From positions 21,514 through 85,513 of the forward strand of contig DATIHX010000003.1 in assembly GCA_035480235.1 (NCBI GenBank): DNA of 64,000 bases, read 5' to 3'. The notes below the pieces were generated by a model, which did no database searches, was not told the origin of the DNA, and was given only the letters and a program-made list of their open reading frames with translations. How positions within the stretch are numbered: position 1 is the stretch's first letter; the number at the start of each line of letters is the position of its first letter. Both the position numbers and the translations under genes were made by a program. The DNA comes from Candidatus Saccharimonadales bacterium. Lineage in GTDB: Bacteria; Patescibacteriota; UBA1384; 2-12-FULL-50-11. Positions 3,226 to 60,427 of this stretch are shown piece by piece.

Positions 3226-4362
3226 TTAGGTGCTCTTGGGCAGGGGCTGAAAGGCTGATAACGCCACAATCAAAAAGAAAATAATCGACAGGTCGTTTTT
3301 CCAGTAGGGGGTGTCGACGAGGCCGTGGACGATGATGACAACCAGCGCCCCGACGAGCGCCGGCTGGCGGGTTTTAATTTGCTCGTAGAAGAGCGCGCCG
3401 ATTAGCCAAATCAGGCCAACAAAACCAAGTAAGCCACTAGAAAGCCAAGTCGCCAGGTAAAAATTATGCGGCTCGGGGACGCTCCACTCGATTGGATTGG
3501 CGAAAGCCAAGCCGATCCGGGCACCGTAGTAACTTTGGAAAACGCCGGGGCCGATGCCGGTCAGGATGTGGTCGTGAACGGCCGTCCGGGCGATAGTCCA
3601 AATTTGCGCCCGGCCGCCGAGGCGAACCCCAAAAAGCTGGCTGGCCCAATTGGTCAGAATTGGGGTGAGGCTAACTAAGCTAAAAACGCCGAGGGCCCCG
3701 GCCAGGCTACCTGTTAGTATTTTCTCCTGGCGGGTCGTCTGCAGTCGCCCTACAAACCAGTAAACCGCCAGACCGATCGCCAAGGCGCTCAGGCCGCCGA
3801 ACGATTTCGTTAAACCAATCGCCACCACAATCACTAACAGACCGAGCCGTTCAAACCAGCTTCGGCGACCAGGCAGAACCAAAAAGAAGACCGGCACCAG
3901 CCACATCGCCGCCGCGTTGGGTGAGTTGAAAAAGCTGCTTAAGCGAGTCAGGTGCCAGAATTCCTGGCCGATCCCGACTAATGCGACCACGACTGCCGTC
4001 ACGAGCAAGCTTTTTTCAAGAATTGGCCGAGCTTTAGAGGACTTAGCCACTAATTGAATCGTTAGAAACCCAAACAAGGCCGGGAAAAATACCCAGCTTT
4101 TGAGGCCGCCGAAAGCCACCGAACCAGCGCTGACGGTGGAGATGAGCGCGCCGAGCACAAAAACCAATACTGGTAAAAGCACCGTCAGTTTCGGCCAAGA
4201 CACCTGGAGTTGGCCTCGAATTACTAGCGTTAGCCAACATAGCGCCCCAGCGATAATAAAGAGCTCCGGCAAATAAAACGGAACGCCCATCAGCGTCAGC
4301 CGGGTCATGTACAGCGGGGTGCTGGCAAGCGCCCCGGCCAGAAAAATTGTGACTAGTTCCAT
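3226..4362 (-). CDS. O-antigen ligase/polymerase-like polytopic membrane protein
   Basis: 378 aa and about 10 TM segments. Wzy_C-like loop after LTKSFGGLSALAIG. Confidence 0.55.
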   Translation of the reverse strand: MELVTIFLAGALASTPLYMTRLTLMGVPFYLPELFIIAGALCWLTLVIRGQLQVSWPKLTVLLPVLVFVLGALISTVSAGSVAFGGLKSWVFFPALFGFLTIQLVAKSSKARPILEKSLLVTAVVVALVGIGQEFWHLTRLSSFFNSPNAAAMWLVPVFFLVLPGRRSWFERLGLLVIVVAIGLTKSFGGLSALAIGLAVYWFVGRLQTTRQEKILTGSLAGALGVFSLVSLTPILTNWASQLFGVRLGGRAQIWTIARTAVHDHILTGIGPGVFQSYYGARIGLAFANPIEWSVPEPHNFYLATWLSSGLLGFVGLIWLIGALFYEQIKTRQPALVGALVVIIVHGLVDTPYWKNDLSIIFFLIVALSAFQPLPKST

Positions 4363-8431: not shown

Positions 8432-9439
8432 TTAAGCTAGCTTGGCGCTCCAGCGGCGTTTCTGGGTGATAAGCGAGCGGGCGACAAAGGGCAGCAGCAG
8501 CGTCAGCCAATAGAAAAGCCGAGTCGTTCGGTCGGCCCGACCGCTCCGGATCATAGCTCGATAGATCATTTTCGCTTCGGAGTATCGCCCAACCGAGACG
8601 AAGTAATTGGCGAGACGTTTCCGAAATAAAGTGCGTTCAGTCGCAAAAGCCTCTTTTTCCTCGGCCGTCAGATTCGGCGAAGTGGCGTAGCGCTCAAACA
8701 CGATCTCGGTGTCGCGGCTCGCCCCGACAATCCCGTCTGGACGGTTGGAGATGCTGCTCGGCAGCAGCCGATGATAAACGGTCGGCGTCGACTCGGCCAA
8801 AATATTGTAACGGCCGCTGGCGATCACCCGCAGCGTCAATTCTTTATCGTCGGCGGCGACCAAGCTTTCGTCGATTGGGCCAAACGTGTCGATGACCGCC
8901 CGACGCACGAGCATACACGACGAAGTTAAGAAAAGTGTCCCGGCTAGAGCCAGCTGCCGGAGTTCGGCTTGACCATATTGACTGGCGATCGGCCGATAGG
9001 TTTCGGTTTCATTCGACTGACCAGTTCGGACAACGTAGCCGTTCGAGCCAACCAATCCGATTTTTGGATCGGAGTTAATTAGCTGGACGAGGCGCTCGAG
9101 GTGATCCGGCGTCCACCAGTCGTCGTGATCCATAAAGGCGATCAGCTCGCCGCGACTCCGTTTGATGCCAACGTTCTTACCGACCGATGGTTTGCCGGCG
9201 GCTTTCTCTGGCCGAAAGTAGTCGATCTTGGCCGGGTGACGCTCGGCGAAGTCTTGCGCAATCATTGCACTACCATCGGTGGAGTGGTCGTCGATAATAT
9301 ACAATCGCCAATCGGTGAACGTTTGAGCCAGAATCGAGTTAACCGTTTCCTTGATATACGGCGCGGCGTTGTAGAGCGGAATGATGACGGAGACGGTTTC
9401 GGAGACGGCCATTGGTATAGAGTAGCAGCCCCGAGCCAA
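8432..9439 (-). CDS. Glycosyltransferase family 2
   Basis: VSVIIPLYNAAPYI...IIDDHSTDGS...AFMDHDDWW. An alternative ATG at 9412 is equally possible. Confidence 0.85.
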   Translation of the reverse strand: MARGCYSIPMAVSETVSVIIPLYNAAPYIKETVNSILAQTFTDWRLYIIDDHSTDGSAMIAQDFAERHPAKIDYFRPEKAAGKPSVGKNVGIKRSRGELIAFMDHDDWWTPDHLERLVQLINSDPKIGLVGSNGYVVRTGQSNETETYRPIASQYGQAELRQLALAGTLFLTSSCMLVRRAVIDTFGPIDESLVAADDKELTLRVIASGRYNILAESTPTVYHRLLPSSISNRPDGIVGASRDTEIVFERYATSPNLTAEEKEAFATERTLFRKRLANYFVSVGRYSEAKMIYRAMIRSGRADRTTRLFYWLTLLLPFVARSLITQKRRWSAKLA

Positions 9440-15694: not shown

Positions 15695-15708
15695 CGCTCA
15701 AGTAGCGT

Positions 15709-15737
15709 GCCCCCGTCCACAACGGGGGCTTTTTTAT
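15709..15737 (+). terminator. Rho-independent terminator
   Basis: CCCCCG (15710..15715), 7-nt loop, CGGGGG (15723..15728), then CTTTTTTATT. Confidence 0.75.
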
Positions 15738-15941
15738 TCGATTGTCGAAGTATTATTTGACTCATTGAGCGATTTATCGTTTACTAAAATCCTCGTACAT
15801 TAGATTAAAAAAGCAAAGACTGCCTAGTGTTGGTTCCGAACCGAAGCTTGAATTTATTCGAGCCAAGAAGTAGAAAACTGGCGCTGGGCTTCTTTGTTAC
15901 CCTGGATTTTTCGGGAATAATTAAGTAGAATTATTAGGTTT

Positions 15942-21449: not shown

Positions 21450-21546
21450 GTAAGAATAGCGTCTCGCACTTTGGCTTTTACTTCAAGCCTCTTGATCTTA
21501 GAAGGCCGCTCGCGTACACTTCAGATAACAAAAGGAGTACCTTATC

Positions 21547-23627: not shown

Positions 23628-23700
23628 GCGCCCGTAGCTCAGCGGATAGAGCGTTCGGTTGCGGTCCGAAAGGTCGCTGGTTCGATTCCAGCCGGGCGCA
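23628..23700 (+). tRNA. tRNA-Arg (anticodon GCG)
   Basis: GCGCCCG-TA-GCTCAGCGGATAGAGC-G-TTCGG-TTGCGGT-CCGAA...GCTGGTTCGATTCCAGC-CGGGCGC-A. Confidence 0.85.
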
Positions 23701-23722
23701 CGAAGTGGTTTGATTTTTATTA

Positions 23723-23814
23723 GCGCCCGTAGCTCAGTGGATCAAATCAGGTTTTTGTCCCCTGCGCCACTGGCACTCAGCCAGTTATTGTTTGCCTACG
23801 CTAGTGTAGGCCTC
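23723..23814 (+). pseudogene. Truncated tRNA-Arg 5' copy (23 nt) plus a unique tail
   Basis: Starts GCGCCCGTAGCTCAGTGGATCAA, then hairpin GGA(T)CAAA-TCAGGTT-TTTGTCC. No T-arm or 3' acceptor strand. Further hairpins: ACTGGC/GCCAGT and CCTAC/GTAGG. Confidence 0.5.
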
Positions 23815-23896
23815 GCGCCCGTAGCTCAGTGGATCAAGTTGGTAATCCTTGTCCCCTTCGCTCCGTTCGCTGCATTGTTCGCTTCGCTCACAATTT
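23815..23896 (+). pseudogene. Truncated tRNA-Arg 5' copy (23 nt) plus a unique tail
   Basis: Starts GCGCCCGTAGCTCAGTGGATCAA, then hairpin GGA(T)CAAG-TTGGTAATC-CTTGTCC, which carries a compensatory change relative to the previous copy. The tail contains four TTCGCT motifs. Confidence 0.5.
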
Positions 23897-23969
23897 GCGC
23901 CCGTAGCTCAGTGGATAGAGTATTGGTTTCCGGAACCAAGGGTCGGTGGTTCGAGTCCACCCGGGCGCA
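23897..23969 (+). tRNA. tRNA-Arg (anticodon CCG)
   Basis: GCGCCCG-TA-GCTCAGTGGATAGAGT-A-TTGGT-TTCCGGA-ACCAA...GGTGGTTCGAGTCCACC-CGGGCGC-A. Confidence 0.9.
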
Positions 23970-24125
23970 CAAAAAGAGAATCTCTAACCTGATCCCATTT
24001 CGCGAAGCAATAGCGGAGCGAATGTAAATGTAAAATACATTTCTCATGTGAGAGGGCCCGTAGAGTTAGTTTTCCTAAACGTCGTTATCGGCGCAAATAA
24101 CATAGCGTGCGCGCAACAAAATTTG

Positions 24126-24411: not shown

Positions 24412-24636
24412 CTACCTTGTGAAGATCACTCACACACGATAACAGAGATCGTTTGCACATTCAATGGGCTGGGTAGTAGTCAGGCTTCTCGCAAAGTTGC
24501 TGGATCGACACTGCGGCGTTTCGTCCGCCGAATTTCGGCCTCCATGAGCTGAACCCGTTCTTCATCACCCAGTTTCGCGAACGAAACGTTTCCGTCGCGT
24601 AACAGAGTGCGGATGTGGTCAACCCACGTGCACGAA

Positions 24637-25401
24637 TTAGCCGTTTTTCTTCGATCGAACGGTGACGGCCGCAGTGGCCGCTTTCGACTTGAAGGTCTTA
24701 GCCACGTAAACCTGTTGGGCGAGCGAGAAGAGGCTAGTCATCAGGTAGTAGAGGGCGATACCGGCTGGCAAGGCCCGAACAAAGAAAAAGATCATCACCG
24801 GAAAGAGATACATCATCTGCTTGTTCATCGCGGCCATCGGATCGCCAGCCGCACCGGTGGTTGGATTTAACTGCTGGATATGACGAGTTTGGAAGAATTG
24901 GGCGACCGCTGCGACGGCTGGCAGAATCCAAAAACGATCAGGCTTAAAGAGGTTAATACCGAGGAAAACTGGGTTAACCGGCAACACGTGCGGCGTGAAA
25001 TGGTAGAGCAATTCAGCCGGAAAAGCTTGTTTGGTAATCACAAAGAACAGGTGGTAGAGAATCACCAAAATCGGTAATTGAATGAGGAGCGGCAGGCAGC
25101 CGGAGAGCGGATTGACGCCGTTTTCCTTGTAAAAGGCCATTTGGGCCTGGGCTTGAGCCTGTTTGTCGTCCTTGTATTTCTCCTGGATTTTTTTCAATTC
25201 CGGCGCGTGCTGGCGCAGTTGCAACGGCGCCTGTAAGGCTTTAACGGAAGTGTGCCAGAGTAGCAACCGAACAATTAGGGTGACGCCGATAATCCCCCAG
25301 CCGATTGAATGACCTGGAATTAACCAGGCAAAAAAGATCAATAAGTTGAATAAGGGCTTGTAAAGAATGACCTTAAAGAAAGCTTTGATGGCGGTCCACA
25401 T
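24637..25401 (-). CDS. yidC: Membrane protein insertase YidC (short form)
   Basis: 254 aa. ...LQAPLQLRQHAPELKKIQEKYKDDKQAQAQAQMAFYKENGVNPLSGCLPLLIQLPI... Synteny with yidD, rnpA and rpmH. Confidence 0.9.
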   Translation of the reverse strand: MWTAIKAFFKVILYKPLFNLLIFFAWLIPGHSIGWGIIGVTLIVRLLLWHTSVKALQAPLQLRQHAPELKKIQEKYKDDKQAQAQAQMAFYKENGVNPLSGCLPLLIQLPILVILYHLFFVITKQAFPAELLYHFTPHVLPVNPVFLGINLFKPDRFWILPAVAAVAQFFQTRHIQQLNPTTGAAGDPMAAMNKQMMYLFPVMIFFFVRALPAGIALYYLMTSLFSLAQQVYVAKTFKSKAATAAVTVRSKKNG

Positions 25402-25563
25402 TAGCTCAATCCTCCGGATTGAGAAATCCTAAATACTAAACTCGAAGCGCTAGACAAGCTCAAAATTCTAATTCCCCAATGTTTTAAACATTCGGATTTG
25501 GGTAATTGGGATTTGTTTCGGATTTCGAGCTTAGGACTTAGGGTTTCCCGCATCTTTTTTATC
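25402..25563. repeat. Imperfectly palindromic intergenic element, copy B (arms around the central palindrome AATGTTT-T-AAACATT)
   Basis: Central palindrome at 25478..25492. Left arm 25422..25450 matches the reverse complement of 30323..30348 at about 22/24 positions. Right arm 25496..25547 is homologous to the reverse complement of 30233..30278. Confidence 0.65.
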
Positions 25564-25809
25564 TTACCTTTTCTCTGGTACTGGGTCAAAGCCGCCGGGG
25601 TAGCCGGGATGGCAACGGCCGACCCGCTTTATCCCCAGCCCAAAGCCATTGAGCACTCCGAATCGCTCGATAGCTTGCTTGGTGTATTCCGAACAGCTCG
25701 GGGTATATCGGCAGGCGCCCAGCGGATAAAAAACTCGCAACCACCCGTGGTCGGGCGAAAGGGTTTTCTGGTAAAGGCTGATTAGGAAGATTGCTGCTTT
25801 TTTTGCCAC
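25564..25809 (-). CDS. yidD: Membrane protein insertion efficiency factor YidD
   Basis: 81 aa. ...LISLYQKTLSP...CRYTPSCSEYTKQAIERFG...GIKRVGRCHP. Confidence 0.9.
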   Translation of the reverse strand: MAKKAAIFLISLYQKTLSPDHGWLRVFYPLGACRYTPSCSEYTKQAIERFGVLNGFGLGIKRVGRCHPGYPGGFDPVPEKR

Positions 25810-26111
25810 GTTTCGATCCCTTGTTGATACTGGCTAAATTCGGCCGAGCGTAGAACTAAGAGCACGACATCAAGCGGCGTCTGGAAGTTTTCGGCCACCG
25901 GCCGCAGGAGCTCGGCGATTTGGCGGCGGATCTTGTTGCGCTCGACGGCTTTTTTACTAACTTTTTTGGAAACGACTACCCCGAAACGGGCGGTTTCAGC
26001 CTCGCCCGGAACGCTAAAAACCAAAAGCGGCCCACACAGCGCTTTATTATGACCCGCTAAAACTCGTTGAAAATCGCGATCTTTTTTGAGGCGATGCTTC
26101 GCCGGCAACAT
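25782..26111 (-). CDS. rnpA: Ribonuclease P protein component
   Basis: 109 aa. MLPAKHRLKKDRDFQRV...VSKKVSKKAVERNKIRRQI. Lies downstream of rpmH. Confidence 0.85.
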   Translation of the reverse strand: MLPAKHRLKKDRDFQRVLAGHNKALCGPLLVFSVPGEAETARFGVVVSKKVSKKAVERNKIRRQIAELLRPVAENFQTPLDVVLLVLRSAEFSQYQQGIETWQKKQQSS

Positions 26112-26119
26112 TTGAGTAT

Positions 26120-26260
26120 TTAGACAACGGCCAGCTTGGCCCGGCCTTTTTTGCGCCGGCTAGCGATTTGCTTGCGGCCCTCGGGCGTCGCCATCTTCAC
26201 CAAAAAACCGTGCTTTTTGTGCCGTTTACGATTGTTGGGTTGGAACGTTCTTTTAACCAT
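26120..26260 (-). CDS. rpmH: 50S ribosomal protein L34
   Basis: Own translation (below the ORF-track size cutoff): [46 protein letters not shown]. Confidence 0.9.
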
Positions 26261-26269
26261 CTGTGCGTT

Positions 26270-26417
26270 TATTCTACAACAAATTAACAGAAGCGGCAAG
26301 CGCCAAACACCAACTGGCGAGAAGATTACTGAATTACGAAATTACTTAATTACTAAAACTGTGGATAACTTAGTGATTTAGTTATTCAAGAATTTAGTAA
26401 TTCTTAAGATTTAAGGG
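26270..26417. promoter_or_regulatory. oriC-associated region upstream of dnaA (DnaA box plus AT-rich inverted repeats)
   Basis: Perfect 9-mer TGTGGATAA at 26360..26368, flanked by AATTACTAAA (about 26347) and TTTAGTAATT (about 26392). AT-rich GAATTACGAAATTACTTAATTAC. Confidence 0.6.
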
Positions 26418-27830
26418 TTGCCCCTTGTGGAAAACTCGGCTATCTTCAAGCCGATGCCCGCAACAATCGACGAGAAAACCTGGAGCCATGTCTTAGCGGC
26501 CTTGGAACCGAGCGTCTCGCGGCCCAATTACGTCACCTGGTTGCAGCCGACGCGATTAGTGGAACTAAACGACGGCTTGGTTATTATCGCCGTCCCCAAC
26601 CCGTACGCCAAAAACTGGATCGAGAAAAACATTCTCAAGGATATCCGAAAGTTTTTAGCCACCGAAGTCGGGCCGATCGAGCACATTCAGTTAGTTGTCG
26701 CCGAAAAAGAAGAGAAGCGACCGTTGGATGAGTTACCCCTCCTGCAAAATACCGAGGATTACAGCCCCAGCGCCGTGCCAGTTGTTGACCAAGTCGACTC
26801 AGTAGCTAAGGAAAAACAATTCAATAGCCACTACACCTTTGAGACATTTATTGTTGGTAATAATAACCGCTTGGCTTTCGCCGCCAGCCAGGTGGTGGCC
26901 GAAAAACCCGGCGAGTCGTACAACCCCCTCTTTCTGTACGGCGGCGTTGGCTTGGGGAAAACCCACCTCATGCAAGCGATCGGCAACGAAATTGCCAAGC
27001 GCGACCCGAAAAAGAAAATCATCTACACTTCTTGTGAAATTTTTACCGGCGAATTTATCGAGGCGCTGCAAAACAAAACCATCAACGCTTTCAAGAAAAA
27101 GTACCGAGGGACCGACGTCTTTTTAATCGACGACATTCAATTTTTGGTTAACAAAGAGGGGACACAAGAGGAGTTTTTCCACACCTTTAATATCCTCCAC
27201 CAAGCCAACCGGCAAATTGTGATAACGAGCGACCGCACCCCGAAAGAAATTACCAAACTCGAGGATCGCCTGACTAGCCGGCTGGGTTGGGGGATGGTCG
27301 CCGACATCCAGGCCCCCAATATCGAGACCCGAACGGCGATTCTTCAAGCCAAAGCCAAAGAAAAGGGCGTCGATATCAGCCACGAGGTGCTCGATTACGT
27401 CGCTAGCGCTATTACTTCCAACGTCCGCGAGCTCGAGGGGTCATTGGTGAAGCTAATTACCACCGCCCAGATTGAAAAAGCGCCGATCACCAAAGACTAC
27501 GCCAAAAAGGTTTTGAAAGATTTAGCCTCCAGCCACAGCAGCGGCAAAAAGATTACCGGTAAGCAGCTCTTGAAAGCGGTGGCGACACATTTTGATATCG
27601 AGGTTAGTGACTTACTGGGGAAAAAGCGGCTGAAAGAGTTGGTCTATCCGCGCCACTTGGCAATGTATCTCCTTAAAGAAAACCTCCACCATTCATTCCC
27701 CCAGATCGGCGACGAGCTCAATAAAGACCACACTACGATTATGCACGGCGTCCGGAAAATTGAGGAACAACTCAAGACCAACCAACACATCGAAGCGGAC
27801 CTGCGAGCAATTGAAGGAGTAATTAATTAA
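26418..27830 (+). CDS. dnaA: Chromosomal replication initiator DnaA
   Basis: AAA+ motif GGVGLGKTHLMQAIGNE, box VII, C-terminal DNA-binding helix-turn-helix ...DHTTIMHGVRKIE. The start is uncertain: TTG 26418, GTG 26427 or ATG 26454. Confidence 0.9.
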   Translation: MPLVENSAIFKPMPATIDEKTWSHVLAALEPSVSRPNYVTWLQPTRLVELNDGLVIIAVPNPYAKNWIEKNILKDIRKFLATEVGPIEHIQLVVAEKEEKRPLDELPLLQNTEDYSPSAVPVVDQVDSVAKEKQFNSHYTFETFIVGNNNRLAFAASQVVAEKPGESYNPLFLYGGVGLGKTHLMQAIGNEIAKRDPKKKIIYTSCEIFTGEFIEALQNKTINAFKKKYRGTDVFLIDDIQFLVNKEGTQEEFFHTFNILHQANRQIVITSDRTPKEITKLEDRLTSRLGWGMVADIQAPNIETRTAILQAKAKEKGVDISHEVLDYVASAITSNVRELEGSLVKLITTAQIEKAPITKDYAKKVLKDLASSHSSGKKITGKQLLKAVATHFDIEVSDLLGKKRLKELVYPRHLAMYLLKENLHHSFPQIGDELNKDHTTIMHGVRKIEEQLKTNQHIEADLRAIEGVIN

Positions 27831-28077
27831 TGTGGATAACTTCACTATTTCTGGGGAAAACTCCTCTTGATTCGAAGGAAAAAACCCGGAATTATTCCTG
27901 GTTTACCAGGTTAAATAAATCATCCCCAATTAATTCAGAAGTTATCCACAGCTGGGCGGGTTTTTTCCACCAACCACAACAGATTACCGTCCACTTTTCC
28001 CCGCGCTCAATAGCTACTACTGTATTTCTTTACTACCTAAACTTTAATACAAACCGGAAAGGAACCACCTAATTAAG
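27831..28077. promoter_or_regulatory. dnaA-dnaN intergenic oriC candidate
   Basis: Perfect DnaA boxes TGTGGATAA (27830..27838) and TTATCCACA (27942..27950), plus an AT-rich stretch at 28020..28077. Confidence 0.6.
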
Positions 28078-29166
28078 ATGAAATTTACAACTAAGAAAAG
28101 CGACCTCTTAAAAGCCGTGAGTGTGGTAGGGCGTTTAGCAACTACCCGAGCCAGTTTACCAATTCTCCAAAATATTTATCTCGAAACTGACGGTAATTTA
28201 CTAAAATTACGCTCAACCGATCTAGAACAAACTTTAGAGATGGATATCGAGGGACGAGTTGAAGAAAATGGCGCTATTACCATCCCGGCCCGCCTCCTTA
28301 ACGACTACCTTCAAAATAACACCGACGAACAGGTGACGCTGGCCACCGACGATCTCACCACCCATATCACCTCCACTAATCATCAAGCTCGAATTAAAGG
28401 GATGGACGCTGGCGAGTACCCAACACTACCCAAAACAAAAACCGAAACAGCAATTACCCTCGACCCAATAGTTTTAACTAACGCTATTACAAAAACCCTT
28501 TTCGCAGCGGCTAGTGATGATACTCGGCCAATTCTTACTGGTCTCCTTTTTCAATTTGAAGAAAAGAATCTAACAATTGTTGGTACCGACGGCTACCGGT
28601 TGGCCACGACCCAAATTGAGTTACCAACACCCTTTAGTGGTAGTTTCATCCTACCCAAGCGTTCGCTCCAAGAAGTGATCCGGCTAATTGAAGAAGATGA
28701 GGTTGAGCTAGTTCTCACCCCTGCTCAAGCCCGCTTCACCAGTGGCCCGGTCCGCTTAATTACCAGAGTATTAGACGGGACCTTCCCGGCTTACGAAGCG
28801 ATTATCCCCAAAACAAAAAAACTCGAGATTCGGCTGCGATCCGAGAGCTTACTCCAAAGCCTAAAACTAGCTAGTTTATTCTCCCGCGACTCAGCCTATA
28901 GCACAAAACTCGAACTGGACGGCACTAAACTGCGCCTGAGCGCTATTTCAGCAACGATTGGCGAAAATACCAACGAAATTACCCTAGAAAAAGCCGTTTC
29001 AGAGAATTTAACGATTAGCGCCAACGCTCAGTATTTAATTGACGTTTTAGCGGTGTTGACCGGCGATATTATCCTCTCTTTTGTAGACGATAAGAGCCCG
29101 ATCGTGTTGACGGTGCCGGGCGAAGCTAATTATCTCTACTTGGTGATGCCGCTGCGCAATTCCTAA
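28078..29166 (+). CDS. dnaN: DNA polymerase III beta sliding clamp
   Basis: 362 aa. MKFTTKKSDLLKAVSVVGRLATTRASLPILQNIYLE... Follows dnaA. Confidence 0.9.
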   Translation: MKFTTKKSDLLKAVSVVGRLATTRASLPILQNIYLETDGNLLKLRSTDLEQTLEMDIEGRVEENGAITIPARLLNDYLQNNTDEQVTLATDDLTTHITSTNHQARIKGMDAGEYPTLPKTKTETAITLDPIVLTNAITKTLFAAASDDTRPILTGLLFQFEEKNLTIVGTDGYRLATTQIELPTPFSGSFILPKRSLQEVIRLIEEDEVELVLTPAQARFTSGPVRLITRVLDGTFPAYEAIIPKTKKLEIRLRSESLLQSLKLASLFSRDSAYSTKLELDGTKLRLSAISATIGENTNEITLEKAVSENLTISANAQYLIDVLAVLTGDIILSFVDDKSPIVLTVPGEANYLYLVMPLRNS

Positions 29167-29170
29167 CTGT

Positions 29171-30232
29171 ATGCCCTTAACGACGCTCAAATTAGAGAAC
29201 GTCCGAGCCTTTGAGCGCCAGAGTTGGGAATTTGGCCCCCGTTCGGTTATTCTTGGCGCTAACGGGGTAGGTAAAAGCACAATTATCGAAGCGATCCGCA
29301 TTCTCTCGGTGGGGAAAAGTTTCCGGACCAGTCGGTTCGACGAGCTAATTCGTTTTGAGGCGCCGTATTGTCGGATTATAGGGGAACGCTCGGAAACAGA
29401 GGGTGAAGCCAGCTCTTCGGCTTCGCTCAGAGTGCCTGCGGCAAAAGTTGAGTTTTTCTACGGCCAGCCGTTCGCCGACGCTGCCAAAGAGCGAATTTTA
29501 ACCATTAATAGCAAGCCGGCTGACTGGTTGGGGTTTATCGGCCAATTCCCCAGCGTCCTCTTTGTGCCGAGCGATATCGATTTAGTCATCGGCCCGCCGC
29601 AACTGCGCCGCCGTTACCTCGACAGTATTTTGTGGCAAGTTGACGCCGAGTTTCGCCAGAATTACTTAGATTTCTCACGGGTTTTGCGGGAGCGAGCGGC
29701 GCTGCTTTTTTTACTGAAGATCCGCCGGGCCGGACTGGATGAACTCCAACCCTGGAACGAATTAATTCAACAGCTGAGCGCGGCCATTCAAACTAAGCGG
29801 CAACAGTACATTGAGTACCTGCAAAAGCAGTTGAAGGGGCAGCTCGTGGGCGGCCAAAAAGTGGCCGTGGAGTACCAACCGAATCAAGCTGAGCTAGCCG
29901 CTGTCCAAAACCAAGAAATTCAAAGTAGCCAGAATTTGTACGGCGCTCACCGCGACGAATTGGAAATTTTGCTGGGCGACCGGTCGGCCAGGCGGTTCGC
30001 CTCGCGCGGCCAAACCCGGACGATCGTAGTGATGCTAAAAACCGTTGAGAGCCGGTTTTTAGCCTTCAAGTCCGGCCAGGCACCATTATTACTGCTCGAC
30101 GACATGTTTTCTGAATTAGACGACGAGAATAGCCGCTACCTTTTTGATAGTTTTGAACCAGACTATCAAGTAATCCTAACCTCGATTAAAACGCAACCGC
30201 TCATCAAAGATTGGCAAACCATAAAACTCTAA
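29171..30232 (+). CDS. recF: DNA replication and repair protein RecF
   Basis: Walker A GANGVGKSTIIEAI, signature and Walker B region LLLLDDMFSELD. Follows dnaN. Confidence 0.85.
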   Translation: MPLTTLKLENVRAFERQSWEFGPRSVILGANGVGKSTIIEAIRILSVGKSFRTSRFDELIRFEAPYCRIIGERSETEGEASSSASLRVPAAKVEFFYGQPFADAAKERILTINSKPADWLGFIGQFPSVLFVPSDIDLVIGPPQLRRRYLDSILWQVDAEFRQNYLDFSRVLRERAALLFLLKIRRAGLDELQPWNELIQQLSAAIQTKRQQYIEYLQKQLKGQLVGGQKVAVEYQPNQAELAAVQNQEIQSSQNLYGAHRDELEILLGDRSARRFASRGQTRTIVVMLKTVESRFLAFKSGQAPLLLLDDMFSELDDENSRYLFDSFEPDYQVILTSIKTQPLIKDWQTIKL

Positions 30233-30358
30233 ACACTAAGTTCTAAACTCTAAACAATGCTCCAATTACCAAAATTACAATGTTTAAAACATTCAAAAGT
30301 TATTTTTTTGATTTTGCTTAGAGCTTCGAATTTAGGATTTAGGATTTGTTTTTCCTAA
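30233..30358. repeat. Imperfectly palindromic intergenic element, copy A (central palindrome AATGTTT-A-AAACATT)
   Basis: Central palindrome at 30279..30293. Arms are CTAAGTTCTAAACTCTAAAC... and ...GAGCTTCGAATTTAGGATTTAGGATTTG. Inverted relative to copy B on the + strand, but in the same orientation relative to the flanking transcription. Confidence 0.65.
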
Positions 30359-30643
30359 ATGGAAAAACTTGGTGATTATTTACCAGTTCATCGCCACGGC
30401 ATGTTGGGGCGGATATTCTTGGCCAAACAACTAACCGACGCCGTTCAAGCGCTAGTCCCGGGCGAGTTAAAAGTGGTGATTCGGGCTAAAACCATTACCC
30501 TTAATTGCGCCGAACCGGCCTACGCCAAACGGCTGACGCTGGAACGGCGCAAACTCGAAGCCATCCTCACCCGACTAGCCGGCCAGGGTCATAACTTGAC
30601 GCTGAAAATTCGCACTCACGGCCCGGGAACTACTGATCGCTAA
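30359..30643 (+). CDS. DUF721/DciA-like protein
   Basis: 94 aa in the position after recF that is typical for DUF721. ...VIRAKTITLNCAEPAYAKRLTLERRKL... Confidence 0.6.
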   Translation: MEKLGDYLPVHRHGMLGRIFLAKQLTDAVQALVPGELKVVIRAKTITLNCAEPAYAKRLTLERRKLEAILTRLAGQGHNLTLKIRTHGPGTTDR

Positions 30644-31208
30644 TGAGGAGGGTGGTCTTGGGATCGGCCTGGGCGGTGGCTAAATAGGCCCGGGCGTCGG
30701 TGATCGCTTGGTTATGCTCGGCCTGGTAAGTAGTATTGTCGGTGGACGAGCTTCGGTGATAGATGGTGAGGTTAACGGCTAAAAGCGTGGTTAAGTCGGA
30801 GGAGAACTGGCCCTCGACCCGATAGGTAGCGGTGATGTGAGGGAAAAAGGCCAGCATTGGGTTTTCGGCGGCGCCGCGCGCGCCTGGTAGCTCGCTTTCC
30901 TGAACGTGAACTACTAGCTGCCGGGTAACGAGCGGCCAGATGAAAATTTGCTCATGATCTAAATCGGCTAATAAATCTTTGGGGGCGACGACTAGGCGAT
31001 GATGGCCGGCGTGAAACTTCAGGGTGACCGGCGTGGAGTGACCAGTTTTAAAGTTATCAGCGTCGCTGGTAACTGTGGCCCCGGCTTTCAGGCCGCTATC
31101 AGCGATGGCGGTCACGGTCACACTACCTGGAAAAAATAAGAAAATCAGGACAATAACGACAGCGCCGATGCCGGCCAGGAGCAGGTAGAATTTCAGTTGG
31201 TTTGTCAT
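30630..31208 (-). CDS. Membrane-anchored hypothetical protein (last gene of the T4SS-like operon)
   Basis: 192 aa with an N-terminal TM helix (FYLLLAGIGAVVIVLIFLFF). 1-nt gap to the upstream amidase gene. Confidence 0.5.
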   Translation of the reverse strand: MTNQLKFYLLLAGIGAVVIVLIFLFFPGSVTVTAIADSGLKAGATVTSDADNFKTGHSTPVTLKFHAGHHRLVVAPKDLLADLDHEQIFIWPLVTRQLVVHVQESELPGARGAAENPMLAFFPHITATYRVEGQFSSDLTTLLAVNLTIYHRSSSTDNTTYQAEHNQAITDARAYLATAQADPKTTLLISDQ

Positions 31209-46666: not shown

Positions 46667-46686
46667 CTCTAGTGATCATCGACCCA

Positions 46687-46716
46687 GCGGGTTGGAAATC
46701 TCCAACCCGCTTTTTT
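46687..46716 (+). terminator. Rho-independent terminator
   Basis: GCGGGTTGGA (46687..46696), AATC loop, TCCAACCCGC (46701..46710), then TTTTTT. Confidence 0.85.
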
Positions 46717-47200: not shown

Positions 47201-49325
47201 CGAACATCGTTTGGTTAATTTCAGTGACTAAAAACGGTGCGAAGTCGGAGAGGAGCACCAGGAGGCGCTTCAAGCTATCTTGGAGGACGGCTTCGGCTTG
47301 GGCTTTCCGGGTTTCATCGGCCGATTCCAGCAGCACCTTTTTCTCGTATTCCAACAGCTGATCGGCGAAGTCGTGCCAGAAAAATTCGTAGAGTTCCTCA
47401 AGGGCCAAGCCGAGTTTGTAGGTTTTGAAATCTTTGTGATTACTTTCTTCAAGCCTGCTTAATTTTTCCAAGAATTTTTTCTCTGTTTCATCTAGTTGTT
47501 TCGGATTTGGGATTTGGGATTTAGAATTTCCCGTTGAGGCTACGAAACGGGCGGCATTCCAAATTTTTGTCACAAAATTCCGGTATTTGAGCAATTTTGT
47601 CTCGGTATAGCGTTGCGGCAGCCCCGGGCTGTTGCCGCCGATTAAGCTCATCCGCAGGGCGTCGGAGCCGTATTTATCAATTAAAGCTAACGGATCCATC
47701 GTGTTGCCTTTGCTCTTGCTCATTTTTTTGCCTTGATCGTCCAGGATTAGGCCGTGGAAAAGTACCTCTTTGAACGGGATTTCGCCGGTTAGAGCTTGGC
47801 TCATCATGATCATTCGGGCGACCCAAAAAAAGAGAATATCTTGGCCCGTTTCGAGAAAACTCGTCGGATAGTATTCTTTCAGGTCGGGAGCAGTTTTATC
47901 CGGCCAGCCTAAAGTGGCGAGCGGCCACAAGCCGGCCGAAAACCAGGTGTCGAGCGTGTCCGGGTCTTGTTCCATCGCGCACTCGCCGCAGATCGGGCAA
48001 ACTTTTGGTTTTTCCAAAGCAACGATAAATCCTTCATTATTTTTGGGATTTGATTTTTGGGATTTGGTTTTTGCTGACCAGTTCTGGCAGTGCCAGACTG
48101 GCAGCTCGTGTCCCCACCAGAGTTGGCGCGAGATACACCAGTCATGGAGGTTGTTGAGCCAATGGAAATACACTTTCTCCACATTTTTTGGCGTGAATTT
48201 TATATCACCCAATTTAACGGCTTTCAGGGCAGCGTCTTTGAGCTCGGTCGTTTTCATGAACCACTGGGTGGAAATCAGCGGTTCGATAATGGCGCCGGAG
48301 CGCTCCGAAATCGCTACCCGGGCGTTGTAGTCGGTGACTTTTTCTACTAAACCTAATTCCTCGAGCTTTTTGACGATTGGCTCGCGGGCCTCAAGCGCCT
48401 TTAACCCAGCCCACTCGCCAGCTAAGTCGGTCAGCTTGCCGTATTTATCGATCGTTTGAACGACAGGCAGGTTGTGGCGCTGCCCGGCCTCAAAGTCGTT
48501 TTTATCGTGAGCGGGGGTAATTTTAACGGCGCCGGTGCCGAATTCTGGGTCCACAAACTCGTCAGCGATCACGGGTAACTTTTTCTTCTGACCAGTTGCC
48601 AAAACGATTTCAACTTCCTGGCCGACGTATTTTTCGTAGCGCTTATCTTTCGGGTTGACCGCAATGGCGACGTCGCCGAACTGGGTTTCCGGGCGGCTGG
48701 TGGCGACGGTCAGCGGACCGTATTTTAGCCAATACAACTTGGCTGGCCGGTCTTCGTTCAAAACCTCGTCGTCGGAGATGGCGGTTTGCAGTTTTGGGTC
48801 CCAGTTGACCAAGTATTCGCCGCGGTAAATCAGTTTTTTCTCGTACAGCTCCACAAAAGCAGTTTTAACGGCTAGCTGCGAATGCTCGTCCATCGTGAAG
48901 CGGAAATGCCCCCAGTCGGCCGAGAGGCCGAAGCGCTTCAGCGACTCTTTAACCCGTGGCAGATAATGGGCGGTCCAATCCTGAACTTCTTCAAGAAATT
49001 TCTCGCGGCCGAGTTGCGTTCGTGATAAGCCCTTTTCTTTCTGGATTTTCTTTTCCACCAACGCTTGAACGGCAATGGCGGCGTGGTCAGCGCCTGGTAC
49101 CATTAGCACTTTTTTGCCGTGCCGGCGGGCGTGGCGCGCCACGGTATCTTGCAAGCCGTAGGTTAGAGCGTGACCCAGGTGTAAATCACCCGTGACGTTC
49201 GGCGGCGGTATGATAATTGAAAACGGTTCGCCGCTGCCCTTGGGCTTAAATTCGCCAGCCTTTTCCCATTTTTGGTAAATCTCAGCTTCTTTGGTGTGAT
49301 CAAAGCGGGTAGGTATTTCGGTCAT
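47193..49325 (-). CDS. valS: Valyl-tRNA synthetase (short form, 710 aa)
   Basis: Class I motifs HLGHALTYGLQD and KMSKSKGN. Editing-domain motifs TSRPETQFGDVAIAV and GTGAVKITPAHDKNDFE. Confidence 0.85.
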   Translation of the reverse strand: MTEIPTRFDHTKEAEIYQKWEKAGEFKPKGSGEPFSIIIPPPNVTGDLHLGHALTYGLQDTVARHARRHGKKVLMVPGADHAAIAVQALVEKKIQKEKGLSRTQLGREKFLEEVQDWTAHYLPRVKESLKRFGLSADWGHFRFTMDEHSQLAVKTAFVELYEKKLIYRGEYLVNWDPKLQTAISDDEVLNEDRPAKLYWLKYGPLTVATSRPETQFGDVAIAVNPKDKRYEKYVGQEVEIVLATGQKKKLPVIADEFVDPEFGTGAVKITPAHDKNDFEAGQRHNLPVVQTIDKYGKLTDLAGEWAGLKALEAREPIVKKLEELGLVEKVTDYNARVAISERSGAIIEPLISTQWFMKTTELKDAALKAVKLGDIKFTPKNVEKVYFHWLNNLHDWCISRQLWWGHELPVWHCQNWSAKTKSQKSNPKNNEGFIVALEKPKVCPICGECAMEQDPDTLDTWFSAGLWPLATLGWPDKTAPDLKEYYPTSFLETGQDILFFWVARMIMMSQALTGEIPFKEVLFHGLILDDQGKKMSKSKGNTMDPLALIDKYGSDALRMSLIGGNSPGLPQRYTETKLLKYRNFVTKIWNAARFVASTGNSKSQIPNPKQLDETEKKFLEKLSRLEESNHKDFKTYKLGLALEELYEFFWHDFADQLLEYEKKVLLESADETRKAQAEAVLQDSLKRLLVLLSDFAPFLVTEINQTMFDA
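47504..47533. repeat. Element-arm-like tract inside valS, in frame (encodes SKSQIPNPK)
   Basis: GTTTCGGATTTGGGATTTGGGATTTAGAATTTCCCG is collinear with GTTTCGGATTTCGAGCTTAGGACTTAGGGTTTCCCG at 25516..25550. Confidence 0.75.
48040..48074. repeat. Second GGGATTT-type tract inside valS, in frame (encodes KTKSQKSNPKN)
   Basis: TTTTTGGGATTTGATTTTTGGGATTTGGTTTTTGC, located within the Cys-rich insertion WHCQ...CPICGEC. Confidence 0.65.
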
Positions 49326-57917: not shown

Positions 57918-59407
57918 AAAAACATCAGTCGAATTGGCATGAGTTATTCTCTACTGTCCAGCTCAGTAAAAAGAGCCTGGGTTTTTTCGTCGCAGTCGCT
58001 TTGGTGGCTGGCGGGTTGTATTACCTCTGGCACTCGCCGCTTTTGGCTGAGGCGCCGATTAACCCGACGGGTACTGGAGTGGCGCCGAACGTCATCGACA
58101 TCACCCTGAAAAGCAACGGTAATTTGTATCTAGGATCGGTCAAATTGCCGGCCGAGATTTTTAAAGGCTTCAACACCTACCGCTACCGTTACCAAGTTAT
58201 CAACCAGCCCACCGATTTCATCGACCAATTAGTGGTTGACGTGACGCTGCCCCAAGCCGGCACCGAGCAAACCGTCGGCCACGCTTTGGTGAGTAATGGC
58301 GGCGCTAGCGAAGTGAACAGCCAGCTCATTAACCCGACGACGGTCGAGTTCACGGCGCTGGGGATCTCTAACCAAGCCCAATTGGCAATCGAGCTGGAAG
58401 TGCCGCAGAGCTTCGTTCAACAATCGTTTTTATTCCAGGCTCAGCAGTATCTGGCCGAGCTCCCGACCACGATTTGGCTGGGGATCTCGATTGGTTTGCC
58501 ACTCCTCACGGTTTTACTTTTGTTATTTGTGGGCCTGGGCCGGAACCGCAACGTGCCGACGCCAACCGCTCAAGCCATCGAATTACCGAGCCGCCTGCCG
58601 CCAGCGATCTTGGGGATTCTCTGGAAGGGCCGGCTGACCAGCCGCGAACTAGCAGCGACGCTCCTAGATCTGGCCAGACGGGGCCATTTGATTATTCGGC
58701 AGGTCTCGGCCGACGATTTTCGTTTTCGTCTCCTGTCGGGCGGCGATACCTTAAACGACTACGAACAGTCACTGATCGAGCAGATTTTTGGCGCTGATGC
58801 CGATAGAGCCAATACCGAAGAAATCAGCTTCGGTCTGGCCCAAGAAGTCTTCAGTAAACGGGTTTCGCAGGCCTTTTTGCTCGCTTACAAGAAAGTCAGC
58901 GATCTTGGGTATTTTTATACTAATCCGTTGGCCCTCCACCGCCGCTACCAAATCATTGGTATTCTTTTGTTTATTCTCGGGGCAGCCGGCTTCGGCGCCA
59001 ATTTGTTATTTATCACCACTGTTCGCTACAGTCTCTTCTTTTGGGTGGGGATGATGGCAGCGGCATTAGCCGTAACCTATTTGGCTAAATCGCTGCCGGT
59101 CCGGACCGTTTACGGCGACCGGGAGATCGGCCGCTGGCTGGCTTTCCGCAGCTACTTAACTGCCAAAGAGCCGATTAACTATGTCGCTCACAGCCAGGAG
59201 CAGTTTCTGGCCTACCTCCCCTACGCCGTCGTTTTGGACGTGGAACGCGAGTGGACGCGCCGCTTTTTCCACTTGCCGTTTGCTCAGCCTTCGTGGTACG
59301 TAGCGCCAAACGTTAGCACCATTGACGACTTTACGAACCAGATTTTCCCGCTTTTTGGCTACCTGTCGCACGCTTTAGCGCTGACGGCCCAACCAGCAGC
59401 GCAATAG
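57899..59407 (+). CDS. DUF2207-like membrane protein
   Basis: N-terminal TM helix, a roughly 170-aa extracytoplasmic domain, then TM plus RELAATLLDLARRGHLIIRQV and C-terminal TM helices. Confidence 0.55.
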   Translation: MGGVSLKKHQSNWHELFSTVQLSKKSLGFFVAVALVAGGLYYLWHSPLLAEAPINPTGTGVAPNVIDITLKSNGNLYLGSVKLPAEIFKGFNTYRYRYQVINQPTDFIDQLVVDVTLPQAGTEQTVGHALVSNGGASEVNSQLINPTTVEFTALGISNQAQLAIELEVPQSFVQQSFLFQAQQYLAELPTTIWLGISIGLPLLTVLLLLFVGLGRNRNVPTPTAQAIELPSRLPPAILGILWKGRLTSRELAATLLDLARRGHLIIRQVSADDFRFRLLSGGDTLNDYEQSLIEQIFGADADRANTEEISFGLAQEVFSKRVSQAFLLAYKKVSDLGYFYTNPLALHRRYQIIGILLFILGAAGFGANLLFITTVRYSLFFWVGMMAAALAVTYLAKSLPVRTVYGDREIGRWLAFRSYLTAKEPINYVAHSQEQFLAYLPYAVVLDVEREWTRRFFHLPFAQPSWYVAPNVSTIDDFTNQIFPLFGYLSHALALTAQPAAQ

Positions 59408-59467
59408 CGAAAAATTCCAAAACTCAAGCACCGAATACCAAACAAATAACAATTACTAAATCTTAAA
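59408..59467. repeat. Left flank of the four-helix-bundle gene, resembling the left arm of the intergenic element
   Basis: AAAATTCCAAAACTCAAGCACCGAATACCAAACAAATAACAATTACTAAATCTTAAAC contains CCAAAx/CTAAAT-type repeats like those at 30233..30278. Confidence 0.45.
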
Positions 59468-59812
59468 CTACTTTTCAGAACTAGTAATAATTGCCGAGAA
59501 TATTTTTATCAATTCGGTTGCTTCACGAATTAATTTGCTGGGGTCTGCTGAAGATTGACTATTACTTTCCAAGAGCTCAAGCCAGTATCGACTTTCTCGG
59601 GCCTCTTTACGAGAAATTTTCAGTCGCATAATGAAATCTTTCTTACTTAGCGACTCATTTGCTTCAATGTAATTCGCCCCAATAGAGCCTGATGAGCGAA
59701 CCAGCTGTTTACTATCCTCGTTGACCGTTGCAGATTTTGTTAGCTCATTACAGAAAATCCTCACATCTTTTGCGAACTTCATCGTGCGCTCCTCAAGGTC
59801 GTATCGTTTCAT
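59468..59812 (-). CDS. Four-helix-bundle protein (23S rRNA intervening-sequence protein family-like)
   Basis: 114 aa. MKRYDLEERTMKFAKDVRIFC...GSIGANYIEANESLSKKDFIMRLKISRKEARESRYWLELL. Confidence 0.75.
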   Translation of the reverse strand: MKRYDLEERTMKFAKDVRIFCNELTKSATVNEDSKQLVRSSGSIGANYIEANESLSKKDFIMRLKISRKEARESRYWLELLESNSQSSADPSKLIREATELIKIFSAIITSSEK

Positions 59813-59869
59813 AGGTTTGATACTCGGAATTTATGATTTGTTTGTTTTTTGTTATTTGGAGCTTGGTAT
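59813..59869. repeat. Right flank of the four-helix-bundle gene, resembling the right arm of the intergenic element
   Basis: ...GATTTGTTTGTTTTTTGTTATTTGGAGCTTGGTATTTAGTAAG. GAGCTTGGTATTTAG matches GAGCTTCGAATTTAG (30321..30335) at 12/15 positions. Confidence 0.45.
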
Positions 59870-60427
59870 TTAGTAAGTTACGTGATTAATATAACTTAGC
59901 TTGCCCAGCGGCCAGACGATAAAGCTAATTCGGCCTTGAATGTCGCTGGCTTGAACGGGGCCCCAAAGGCGGGAGTCGCTGGAACCCGGCCGGTTGTCGC
60001 CGCAGAGGAAGTATTCTTTACTGCCTAGCTTTAGGTTGGTGACTTCCTGGTACGGCGGGGCGGCAATGATCGGCCCGTAGGCGCTTTCATCAAGAATCTG
60101 GCCGTTGACGGTAATAACGCCGGCCTTAGCGCTAACGGTATCGCCGGGTAAGCCGATTACCCGTTTAATCAGCCGGGTGTGGCTGGCATCGGCCGGGAAT
60201 TTGGCGGCTACCACGTCGCCACGCTGGAGTTTTGAGGCGTTAAAGTTGACGCGTTGAACCAGCACTAGTTCGCCGGTGGCGAAATTGGGGTCCATGCTGT
60301 GGCCGTCTACCGGTAGTGGCACGCCCAAAAAGACGATCGCCATCACGGCCAGCACAATTAAAACCGCCGCCACCTTAATGAGGTTGAAGAAGTTAATTAA
60401 CCCACTCGAAAAACGTGAACCGGGCAT
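59870..60427 (-). CDS. lepB: Signal peptidase I
   Basis: VDGHSMDPNF (catalytic Ser), RGDVV, KRVIGLPGD (catalytic Lys), GDNRPGSSDSR. Confidence 0.9.
   Translation of the reverse strand: MPGSRFSSGLINFFNLIKVAAVLIVLAVMAIVFLGVPLPVDGHSMDPNFATGELVLVQRVNFNASKLQRGDVVAAKFPADASHTRLIKRVIGLPGDTVSAKAGVITVNGQILDESAYGPIIAAPPYQEVTNLKLGSKEYFLCGDNRPGSSDSRLWGPVQASDIQGRISFIVWPLGKLSYINHVTY

Follow-up and report, generated by a model that had tools for sequence, protein, structure and literature searches.

The 64,000-nucleotide stretch analyzed here (hereafter, the window; positions 21,514 to 85,513 of contig DATIHX010000003.1, assembly GCA_035480235.1, Candidatus Saccharimonadales bacterium) carries two copies of an imperfectly palindromic element composed of inverted arrays of 7-nt units (heptads), one in the spacer between yidD and yidC and the other in the spacer that follows recF. 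The two copies are homologous insertions of non-coding DNA with the same heptad and palindromic anatomy, and they belong to a dispersed family that exhibits no preference for strand or orientation. We interpret them as dispersed non-coding insertions in operon junctions that lack an open reading frame (ORF) of their own, and as relatives, resembling miniature inverted-repeat transposable elements (MITEs), of the selfish elements typified by ribosomal RNA (rRNA) intervening sequences (IVS). We assign this interpretation a probability of roughly 0.7.

Sequence and anatomy of the two copies

The two copies and their central palindromes map to the following positions, the strand assigned to each copy being that of their best mutual alignment.

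25420..25552, minus strand: copy 1, in the yidD-yidC spacer (nhmmer E 4e-41; 48 + 21 bits with the arm hidden Markov model, HMM)
30222..30352, plus strand: copy 2, between recF and a 94-aa gene (nhmmer E 7.5e-35)
25478..25492, no strand: central perfect 15-nt palindrome of copy 1, AATGTTT-T-AAACATT (AATGTTTTAAACATT)
30279..30293, no strand: central perfect 15-nt palindrome of copy 2, AATGTTT-A-AAACATT (AATGTTTAAAACATT)

Each copy spans about 130 nt, and the two are 78% identical, far beyond chance. The longest inverted repeat of the whole window is the one linking both spacers (25424-25509 versus 30262-30347; 86 nt ungapped, 78%), and the local alignment of copy 1 (minus) with copy 2 (plus) yields a score of 56, compared with a mean of 9.5 and a maximum of 15 in 1000 dinucleotide shuffles (z = 31). 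An HMM built on the two copies detects only these two full copies within the window. These results bear out an earlier note on this DNA, made from the letters alone, which had described an imperfectly palindromic intergenic element common to both spacers, and they also recover the two 15-nt palindromes it had reported, which are the only two matches to this motif in 64 kb even when two mismatches are allowed. The motif GAGCTTCGA(A/G)TTTAG, which had been placed at the right end of both copies, is indeed present in both, but on different strands, plus in copy 2 and minus in copy 1 (GCGCTTCGAGTTTAG), in keeping with the best alignment of the copies, which sets them in opposite genomic orientations.

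The alignment of each copy with its own reverse complement outscores every shuffle (39 versus a maximum of 28, and 31 versus a maximum of 25), and same-base autocorrelation peaks at lag 7 in both (0.46 and 0.52). The arms of copy 1 are two inverted arrays of 7-nt units of the NNCTAAR / CGAAAYY type, joined at the center. In both copies, the left arm is made up of NNCTAAR, CGAAAYY and CCAAAYY units, the right arm mirrors the left (YTTAGNN and so on), and the heptad core consists of C-G/T-A-A-A plus two variable bases. The center common to both window copies is AATGTTTNAAACATT. The central palindrome corresponds to the overlap of the innermost heptads from both arms (family motif GAATGTTCAAAAC), and its half-site AATGTTYAAAAC reappears at the inner arm ends of unrelated copies. 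The proposal that the whole unit can fold into a long hairpin is upheld by fold energies that are better than those of shuffled controls in both copies, for RNA on either strand (z -2.7 to -5.5) and for DNA (z -3.3). Both copies sit in intercistronic spacers and are oriented along transcription, an agreement in orientation that is probably a coincidence.

Insertion into tight gene junctions

The evidence that both copies are insertions comes from relatives reached via RecF homologs (81, 79, 71, 61, 58 and 52% identity), in which the gene order is the same. The spacing of the two junctions in these relatives is as follows.

L083 (RecF 81%): 17 nt from recF to the next gene; yidD-yidC spacer of 18 nt
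L084 (RecF 79%): 122 nt from recF to the next gene, holding the element; yidD-yidC spacer of 10 nt
L085 (RecF 71%): 1 nt from recF to the next gene; yidD-yidC absent from the contig
L087 (RecF 58%): 1 nt from recF to the next gene
L089 (RecF 52%): recF and the next gene overlap

Given these tight spacers and overlaps, the ancestral state of both junctions was tight, and both copies are therefore insertions into junctions at which the genes were formerly closely spaced and translationally coupled. Of the two, copy 1 is found in this genome alone. Copy 2 has an ortholog in L084 (9103-9236), with a well-conserved left arm and a retained hairpin (z -3.6) around a center that is no longer palindromic, and in L086 a third junction, that of a VirB4-like gene with a peptidase gene, is occupied by a copy. 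Direct repeats are seen at three junctions of the lineage (GCTCTAA in L084, ATGCGG/ATGTGG at copy 1 and GATGAC/GATGCC in L086), which may be due to chance. The first contig scan, with DnaA as query, was swamped by conserved motifs; its best match was 49% identical, and the central palindrome motif appeared in none of its 80 loci. L083 and L089 (RecF 81% and 52%) both come from one NCBI assembly, GCA_034680565.1, which thus holds two lineage relatives and behaves as a metagenome rather than as a single genome.

The genes at the two junctions, together with a small stem-loop next to copy 1, are these.

25564..25809, minus strand: yidD, upstream of copy 1 (TIGR00278, E 1e-20)
24637..25401, minus strand: yidC, downstream of copy 1 (PF02096, E 2e-46)
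25405..25423, minus strand: small stem-loop CUCAAUCC-GGA-GGAUUGAG, immediately downstream of copy 1 on the mRNA strand
29171..30232, plus strand: recF, upstream of copy 2
30359..30643, plus strand: 94-aa gene, downstream of copy 2, its position after recF kept in all relatives

The stem-loop holds a GGAGGA Shine-Dalgarno sequence 8 nt ahead of the yidC ATG, and it is absent from the relatives without the insertion. The DUF721 label that the earlier note had given to the 94-aa gene finds no backing, there being no Pfam or NCBIfam model for it at E < 0.01. Across this region the gene order runs yidC, yidD (minus), rnpA, rpmH, then dnaA, an 80-aa ORF, dnaN, recF and the 94-aa gene (plus). The 80-aa ORF, without a Pfam match, spans the dnaA-dnaN gap (27830-28072) and is also called in L083, the closest relative (8657-8899).

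Two short ORFs run through the element and were considered as genes.

25401..25589, minus strand: spurious 62-aa ORF through copy 1, in a stretch absent in L083 and L084
30257..30358, plus strand: spurious 33-aa ORF through copy 2

Coding was rejected, in keeping with the suspicion that the 62-aa ORF is an artefact: antisense frames of equal length are open, the frame is not kept between orthologs (the L084 ortholog of copy 2 is open in a partly different frame), and neither peptide has a Pfam or NCBIfam match. In its most specific form, the coding alternative would make the two ORFs small-protein or leader-peptide genes whose translation is coupled to that of yidC and of the 94-aa gene, in the manner of MifM upstream of yidC2 in Bacillus. 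The position of the ORF end speaks for this, since in 4/4 lineage copies it lies at or overlaps the downstream start codon (TAATG, TAA-ATG, TAATG and ATGCCTGA). At copy 1 and in L086, however, the ORF start can be explained as start-codon sequence duplicated at the insertion junction, and the peptides have no hydrophobic segment and nothing comparable in relatives, all of which leaves this alternative scarcely credible.

A dispersed family in metagenomes and viral contigs

A degenerate pattern derived from the left arms of four lineage copies (CKAARNNCKAAGNNCKAAANNCBAAACAA) matches at least 120 metagenome stretches and 18 IMG/VR contigs. A BLAST search of cultured phages and plasmids with one canonical copy gave no match. 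With the copies in relatives and those in more than 130 metagenomic and viral contigs, the search of related genomes and metagenomes proposed in the earlier note has returned further copies; this outcome, like folds that beat shuffles, is the opposite of what that note had named as telling against the element. The members are stereotyped palindromes (AAATCCGAAATTCGAAGCACGAAATCCGAAACAAATTC..AATGACCAAAAT..., a variable center and the mirror image) in "CGAAA" and "CTAAA" flavors, on host contigs with GC contents from 0.29 to 0.71. The arm HMM of the family, in which a C-K-A-A-A core is conserved every 7 columns, pairs 68 complete elements of 110-258 nt, with arms in plus-then-minus order. Likeness to the window copies extends to positions left free by the search pattern, as in L096 (CCTAATTACCAAAATATAAATGTTCAAAACA) versus copy 2 (TCCAATTACCAAAATTACAATGTTTAAAACA). 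As judged from crude ORF calls, which place 14 elements within called and possibly spurious ORFs, the elements lie between tandem genes in 27 cases, convergent genes in 9 and divergent genes in 3, mostly in short spacers.

One way to account for such elements without a mobile family is local growth of simple-sequence repeats, in which slippage lengthened heptamers at each junction independently and an inverted duplication produced the palindrome. Bacterial intergenic DNA contains an excess of heptameric simple-sequence repeats, for which slippage has been proposed as an explanation (PMC4692102). Also consistent with this scenario are the recF stop codon, which falls within the first heptad of copy 2, the 17-nt recF spacer of L083, which comprises two or three heptad-like units (CTCTAAT-GCTAAGT-AATTACTAA), and (TTTGGGA)n tracts inside coding linkers of the VirB4-like and valyl-tRNA synthetase genes of the window. 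Against it stand the 78% identity of the window copies over ~130 nt, their non-periodic center included, the pattern-free stretches shared between these copies and unrelated metagenome copies, and the order of heptad variants (AAATYCG-AAATYCG-AAGCACG-AAATCCG-AAACAA-), which recurs in hosts of 29-71% GC. Slippage may contribute to the growth of the arms; as the full explanation of the element we regard it as quite unlikely.

The coding tracts are in frame, once in the VirB4-like gene (39930-39965; KSQIPNPKSQI) and twice in the valyl-tRNA synthetase gene (47496-47533 and 48042-48072); the first of the latter two shares 79% identity with an arm of copy 1. The VirB4-like tract was considered as an element insertion and ruled out, as it replaces a like-sized linker found in relatives; it is a case of homogenization rather than of insertion. 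In L192 (5199-5400), one arm of a family element has expanded so far that TTTCGTG and TTTCGAA heptads alternate in tandem over a long stretch, and arms can therefore lengthen by repeat expansion. A second repeat, GAGATTGCCACGC..GCTCGCAATGAC, often adjoins heptad elements in sediment metagenome contigs (L116 at 2095-2130 and 3328-3365; L106, L118, L132 and L201), and a relative of it is translated in frame within a phage portal-like ORF (L225, 5855-7411).

RNA, terminator and replication-origin readings

The palindrome could alternatively be maintained as a functional RNA hairpin under selection, be it an RNase III site, a stabilizer of 3' ends, a partial terminator or a device for translational uncoupling. 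In favor of this, the intercistronic spacers that hold the two window copies are presumably transcribed, and the copies run in the direction of transcription; every copy folds better than its shuffles (family mean z -5.2); spacers between divergent genes, where promoters lie, are avoided across the family; the corresponding stems of rRNA IVS are cut by RNase III; and the small hairpin with the yidC Shine-Dalgarno sequence comes right after copy 1. The closest relatives without the insertion, however, manage on spacers of 1-18 nt or on overlapping genes, and the family displays few of the signatures expected of a selected transcript. The 27 elements in tandem context have no strand bias, either in stability (sense versus antisense, 14:13) or in G-U wobble versus A-C mismatches (112:108). 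The asymmetry between arms (GCA versus TAT in the third heptad) points in either direction relative to the genes (6:6), and covariation between the arms is confined to the G/T "flavor" of the heptad core; their variable positions are complementary at chance level. Taken together, the lack of strand bias, the random arm polarity and the chance-level complementarity suggest that the symmetry stems from the DNA element itself and not from an RNA under selection.

An intrinsic terminator was rejected, since the element has no G+C-rich stem followed by a T-run and none was called in a terminator scan of 24500-31000; canonical G+C-rich terminators are present elsewhere in the genome (e.g. 15708-15740, 46685-46716). 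Rfam 15 at gathering threshold, run on the window and on 15 canonical loci, returned only tRNAs and no rRNA in the window, and scans at relaxed E-values gave only generic hairpins far below threshold (plant miRNA precursor noise). On this evidence, a selected RNA hairpin is an unlikely explanation of the element. Between the tRNA-Arg genes at 23628-23701 and 23897-23970, the 5' end of a tRNA-Arg (acceptor and D arm, 23 nt) occurs twice in identical form (23723-23745 and 23815-23837); neither ARAGORN nor Rfam calls these sequences as tRNA, and they may represent truncated tRNAs.

With dnaA between them, the two copies are separated by 4.8 kb and bracket rnpA-rpmH-dnaA-dnaN-recF, which brings to mind a DNA site linked to the origin of replication: a centromere-like parS, a site for SMC or a nucleoid protein, or an unwinding element. 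A perfect 15-bp palindrome would suit a dimeric DNA-binding protein, the center is identical in both copies, and no canonical parS was found in the window. Arguing against such a site, DnaA boxes group beside dnaA (26360, 26426, 27831 and 27942), outside the elements; relatives of the same gene order lack the elements; the L084 ortholog has lost the palindromic center; and family members occur in unrelated contexts, phage contigs included. We consider an origin-linked role most improbable. In the rpmH-dnaA spacer (26300-26420), ATTAC occurs four times at intervals of 8-9 nt and ATTTAG/ATTTAAG three times, and there is a perfect DnaA box at 26360; together with the further DnaA boxes at 26426, 27831 and 27942, this spacer is likely oriC.

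Association with PF05635 four-helix-bundle genes

Arms of the family also occur around genes for a small four-helix-bundle protein (PF05635), which we take to have an Avd-like fold. In L236 (Candidatus Levybacteria), a PF05635 gene lies exactly between the left arm AAAATTCGAATACTTAAATTCGAAACCCGAAACAATACCAA and the right arm ...TTTGTTTCGGATTTCGATATTCGAATTTCGGATTT, which the family arm HMM detects with E 1.7e-4 and 4e-9, respectively. A second metagenome homolog, L230, has one canonical right arm (E 1e-5), and in a third, L232, diverged A-rich/T-rich heptad arms pair in a joined-flank fold that the flank-duplex test does not confirm (z -0.6). Since arms of the same family flank a PF05635 gene in two independent metagenome loci, the best reading is that the window copies relate to gene-carrying units as a MITE relates to its full-length element.

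The window itself contains a PF05635 gene whose flanks align with the family arms and pair together.

59406..59467, plus strand: probable left arm of a split copy, AAATTC-CAAAACT-CAAGCAC-CGAATAC-CAAACAA... (weak; arm HMM E ~1)
59468..59812, minus strand: 114-aa four-helix-bundle gene, PF05635 23S_rRNA_IVP / TIGR02436, between both arms of the split copy
59813..59880, minus strand: probable right (inverted) arm of the split copy (weak; arm HMM E ~4)

The 114-aa protein matches the two families with E 9.7e-15 and 9e-22, and PDB entry 2rld with E 1e-12. The locus lies between a DUF2207 gene and a signal-peptidase gene and has the layout of a 23S rRNA IVS. A fold control on its joined flanks was confounded by local hairpins. 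We regard 59406-59880 as a probable third, split copy that encloses the PF05635 gene. Along with the heptad build, the status of the copies as insertions and the architecture common with S23p/IVS elements, this locus goes beyond what the earlier note had described.

Among homologs on cyanobacterial plasmids, 8/12 lie between inverted arrays of tandem heptamers (joined-flank z -4.5 to -11.8), and a heptamer array flanks 3 more of the 12 on one or both sides. The heptamer unit of these plasmids varies by locus (GTCGGAR, GTAATTC, TTCAAAA), the constant features being the period of 7 and the inverted layout. The association between heptad arrays and four-helix-bundle genes thus covers 4 metagenome and 12 plasmid loci and comes without a genome-wide control. 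On plasmids of Nostoc, Anabaena and Pseudanabaena (L246, L247 and L250), the four-helix-bundle gene adjoins cas1, and in two of these cases (L246, L247) it lies between cas2 and cas1 on the opposite strand.

Comparison with known repeat systems

The closest parallel is the 23S rRNA IVS that carries an S23p ORF, known from Leptospira, Coxiella and Brucella along with the Xanthomonas type of S23p. In Coxiella, inverted repeats at the ends of the IVS form a stem, the arm contains tandem GACAGAT heptamers, and the loop encodes S23p; RNase III cuts the stem, and the IVS has been called a selfish element of unknown mobility (PMC4990558). The window copies likewise have long inverted repeats that form a stem and heptamers in the arm, and the ORF in the IVS loop belongs to the same protein family as the gene between the arms in L236, in the cyanobacterial plasmids and probably at 59406-59880, and as the gene next to the one arm of L230. 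Unlike IVS, the two window copies lack an ORF, their arms meeting at the center and leaving no room for one; they reside in mRNA spacers and not in helix 25 or 45 of 23S rRNA; and their arm sequence (CGAAAYY / CTAAAYY) differs from that of published IVS arms.

A second parallel is provided by the (GGGAATC)n arrays of Xanthomonas and the (GGGGAYT)n arrays of Nostoc. In Xanthomonas, 70-75 convergent pairs of GGGAATC heptamer arrays are found per genome, and their distribution over gene contexts is the same as that of the family described here (PMC4692102). As in these arrays, the unit of the window element is 7 nt long and combines a conserved core with variable positions, and the inverted pair of arrays could form a stem-loop or cruciform. 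The elements are likewise intergenic, tandem (~65-70%) or convergent and rarely divergent, near the upstream gene, and variable in length and presence among close relatives (L083, L085, L087 and L089 being without them). They differ in the unit itself, which is not G-rich and hence makes a quadruplex impossible, and in that the order of heptad variants and the non-periodic center are conserved between copies and over widely differing hosts, a sign that the element was copied whole and did not arise by local slippage. The short tandemly repeated repetitive (STRR) heptanucleotide sequences of cyanobacteria are intergenic heptamer arrays as well.

Small palindromic or MITE-type repeats are known from many bacteria, among them Correia elements, ERIC, RUP, Nezha and the Rickettsia palindromic elements. 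With MITEs, the family shares a size of 110-260 bp, inverted arms, the lack of coding capacity, dispersal in transcribed spacers, variable presence and the existence of a larger gene-carrying form. Unlike MITEs, it yielded neither a transposase partner nor a consistent target-site duplication, its arms are heptad arrays rather than unique terminal repeats, and the gene-carrying form has a four-helix-bundle protein as cargo in place of a recombinase. Repetitive extragenic palindromic sequences and bacterial interspersed mosaic elements (REP/BIME) are G+C-rich units of 20-40 nt tied to a REP-associated tyrosine transposase (RAYT) gene; they resemble the present element in being extragenic palindromes in operon spacers of many bacteria, and differ from it in their size, their G+C-richness and the RAYT gene. 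The element itself is an ordinary small palindromic repeat, best filed as the gene-less form of an IVS-like inverted-heptamer element in mRNA spacers of a genome from the Candidate Phyla Radiation (CPR).

Interpretation and significance

Several results weigh against reading the copies as gene-less relatives of IVS-type selfish elements. Only two full copies are present in ~83 kb of this genome, a search of the ~19 kb outside the window ends having found no further one, and no target-site duplication is visible over 60 or more family members. No autonomous partner was found either: clustering of 542 flanking proteins yielded no recurrent family and no transposase, and Pfam on 64 ORFs adjoining solo arms gave no transposase domains and nothing recurrent. 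PF05635 was found in 0/64 of these ORFs and in none of the IMG/VR contigs, which makes the gene-carrying form rare relative to gene-less copies in this sample. The split copy at 59406-59880 is statistically weak (arm HMM E 1-4; rank 8/61 in the duplex control), no rnc (RNase III) gene is present in the ~83 kb, and the family was gathered with a pattern derived from the window, so that its arm consensus and E-values are partly circular.

If the interpretation holds, the copies would persist as selfish or near-neutral passengers and, lying inside the yidD-yidC and recF operons, would be transcribed with them. The transcript would form a hairpin with arms of ~55 nt, paired as an imperfect duplex. 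By analogy with the stems of rRNA IVS, RNase III might be expected to cut this hairpin, and such cutting would part the two cistrons at each junction, yidD and yidC in one case and recF and the gene that follows it in the other. Copy 1 may have brought its own Shine-Dalgarno sequence for yidC, in which case the GGAGGA hairpin would replace the lost coupling.

A broader proposal is that inverted heptad arrays and PF05635 proteins make up an unrecognized mobile or self-propagating class that extends across phyla (CPR, cyanobacteria and others, with gene-less copies on phage contigs). In this class, a pentameric PF05635 protein would recognize the 7-nt arrays, as DNA hairpin or as RNA, and promote their spread or maintenance, and gene-less palindromes, the window copies included, would be its non-autonomous copies. 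We put this forward tentatively and regard it as doubtful.

Annotation of this genome should omit both ORFs (62 and 33 aa) and treat the two spacers as repeat insertions that are uninformative on yidC or recF specifically. The wider interest lies in part in the association between heptad arrays and four-helix-bundle genes. In the literature as searchable, no paper joins heptamer arrays, rRNA IVS and PF05635 genes, and a query with the element's sequence string matched only primers; heptameric intergenic repeats, rRNA IVS and the very large four-helix-bundle protein family, treated separately there, are apparently parts of one kind of unit here. If it exists, the broader class would explain both why heptamers are in long-noted excess between bacterial genes and how rRNA intervening sequences arose. 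If the three are indeed parts of one kind of unit, this would provide a testable origin for the 7-nt repeat excess together with a candidate nucleic-acid target for S23p/Avd-like proteins.

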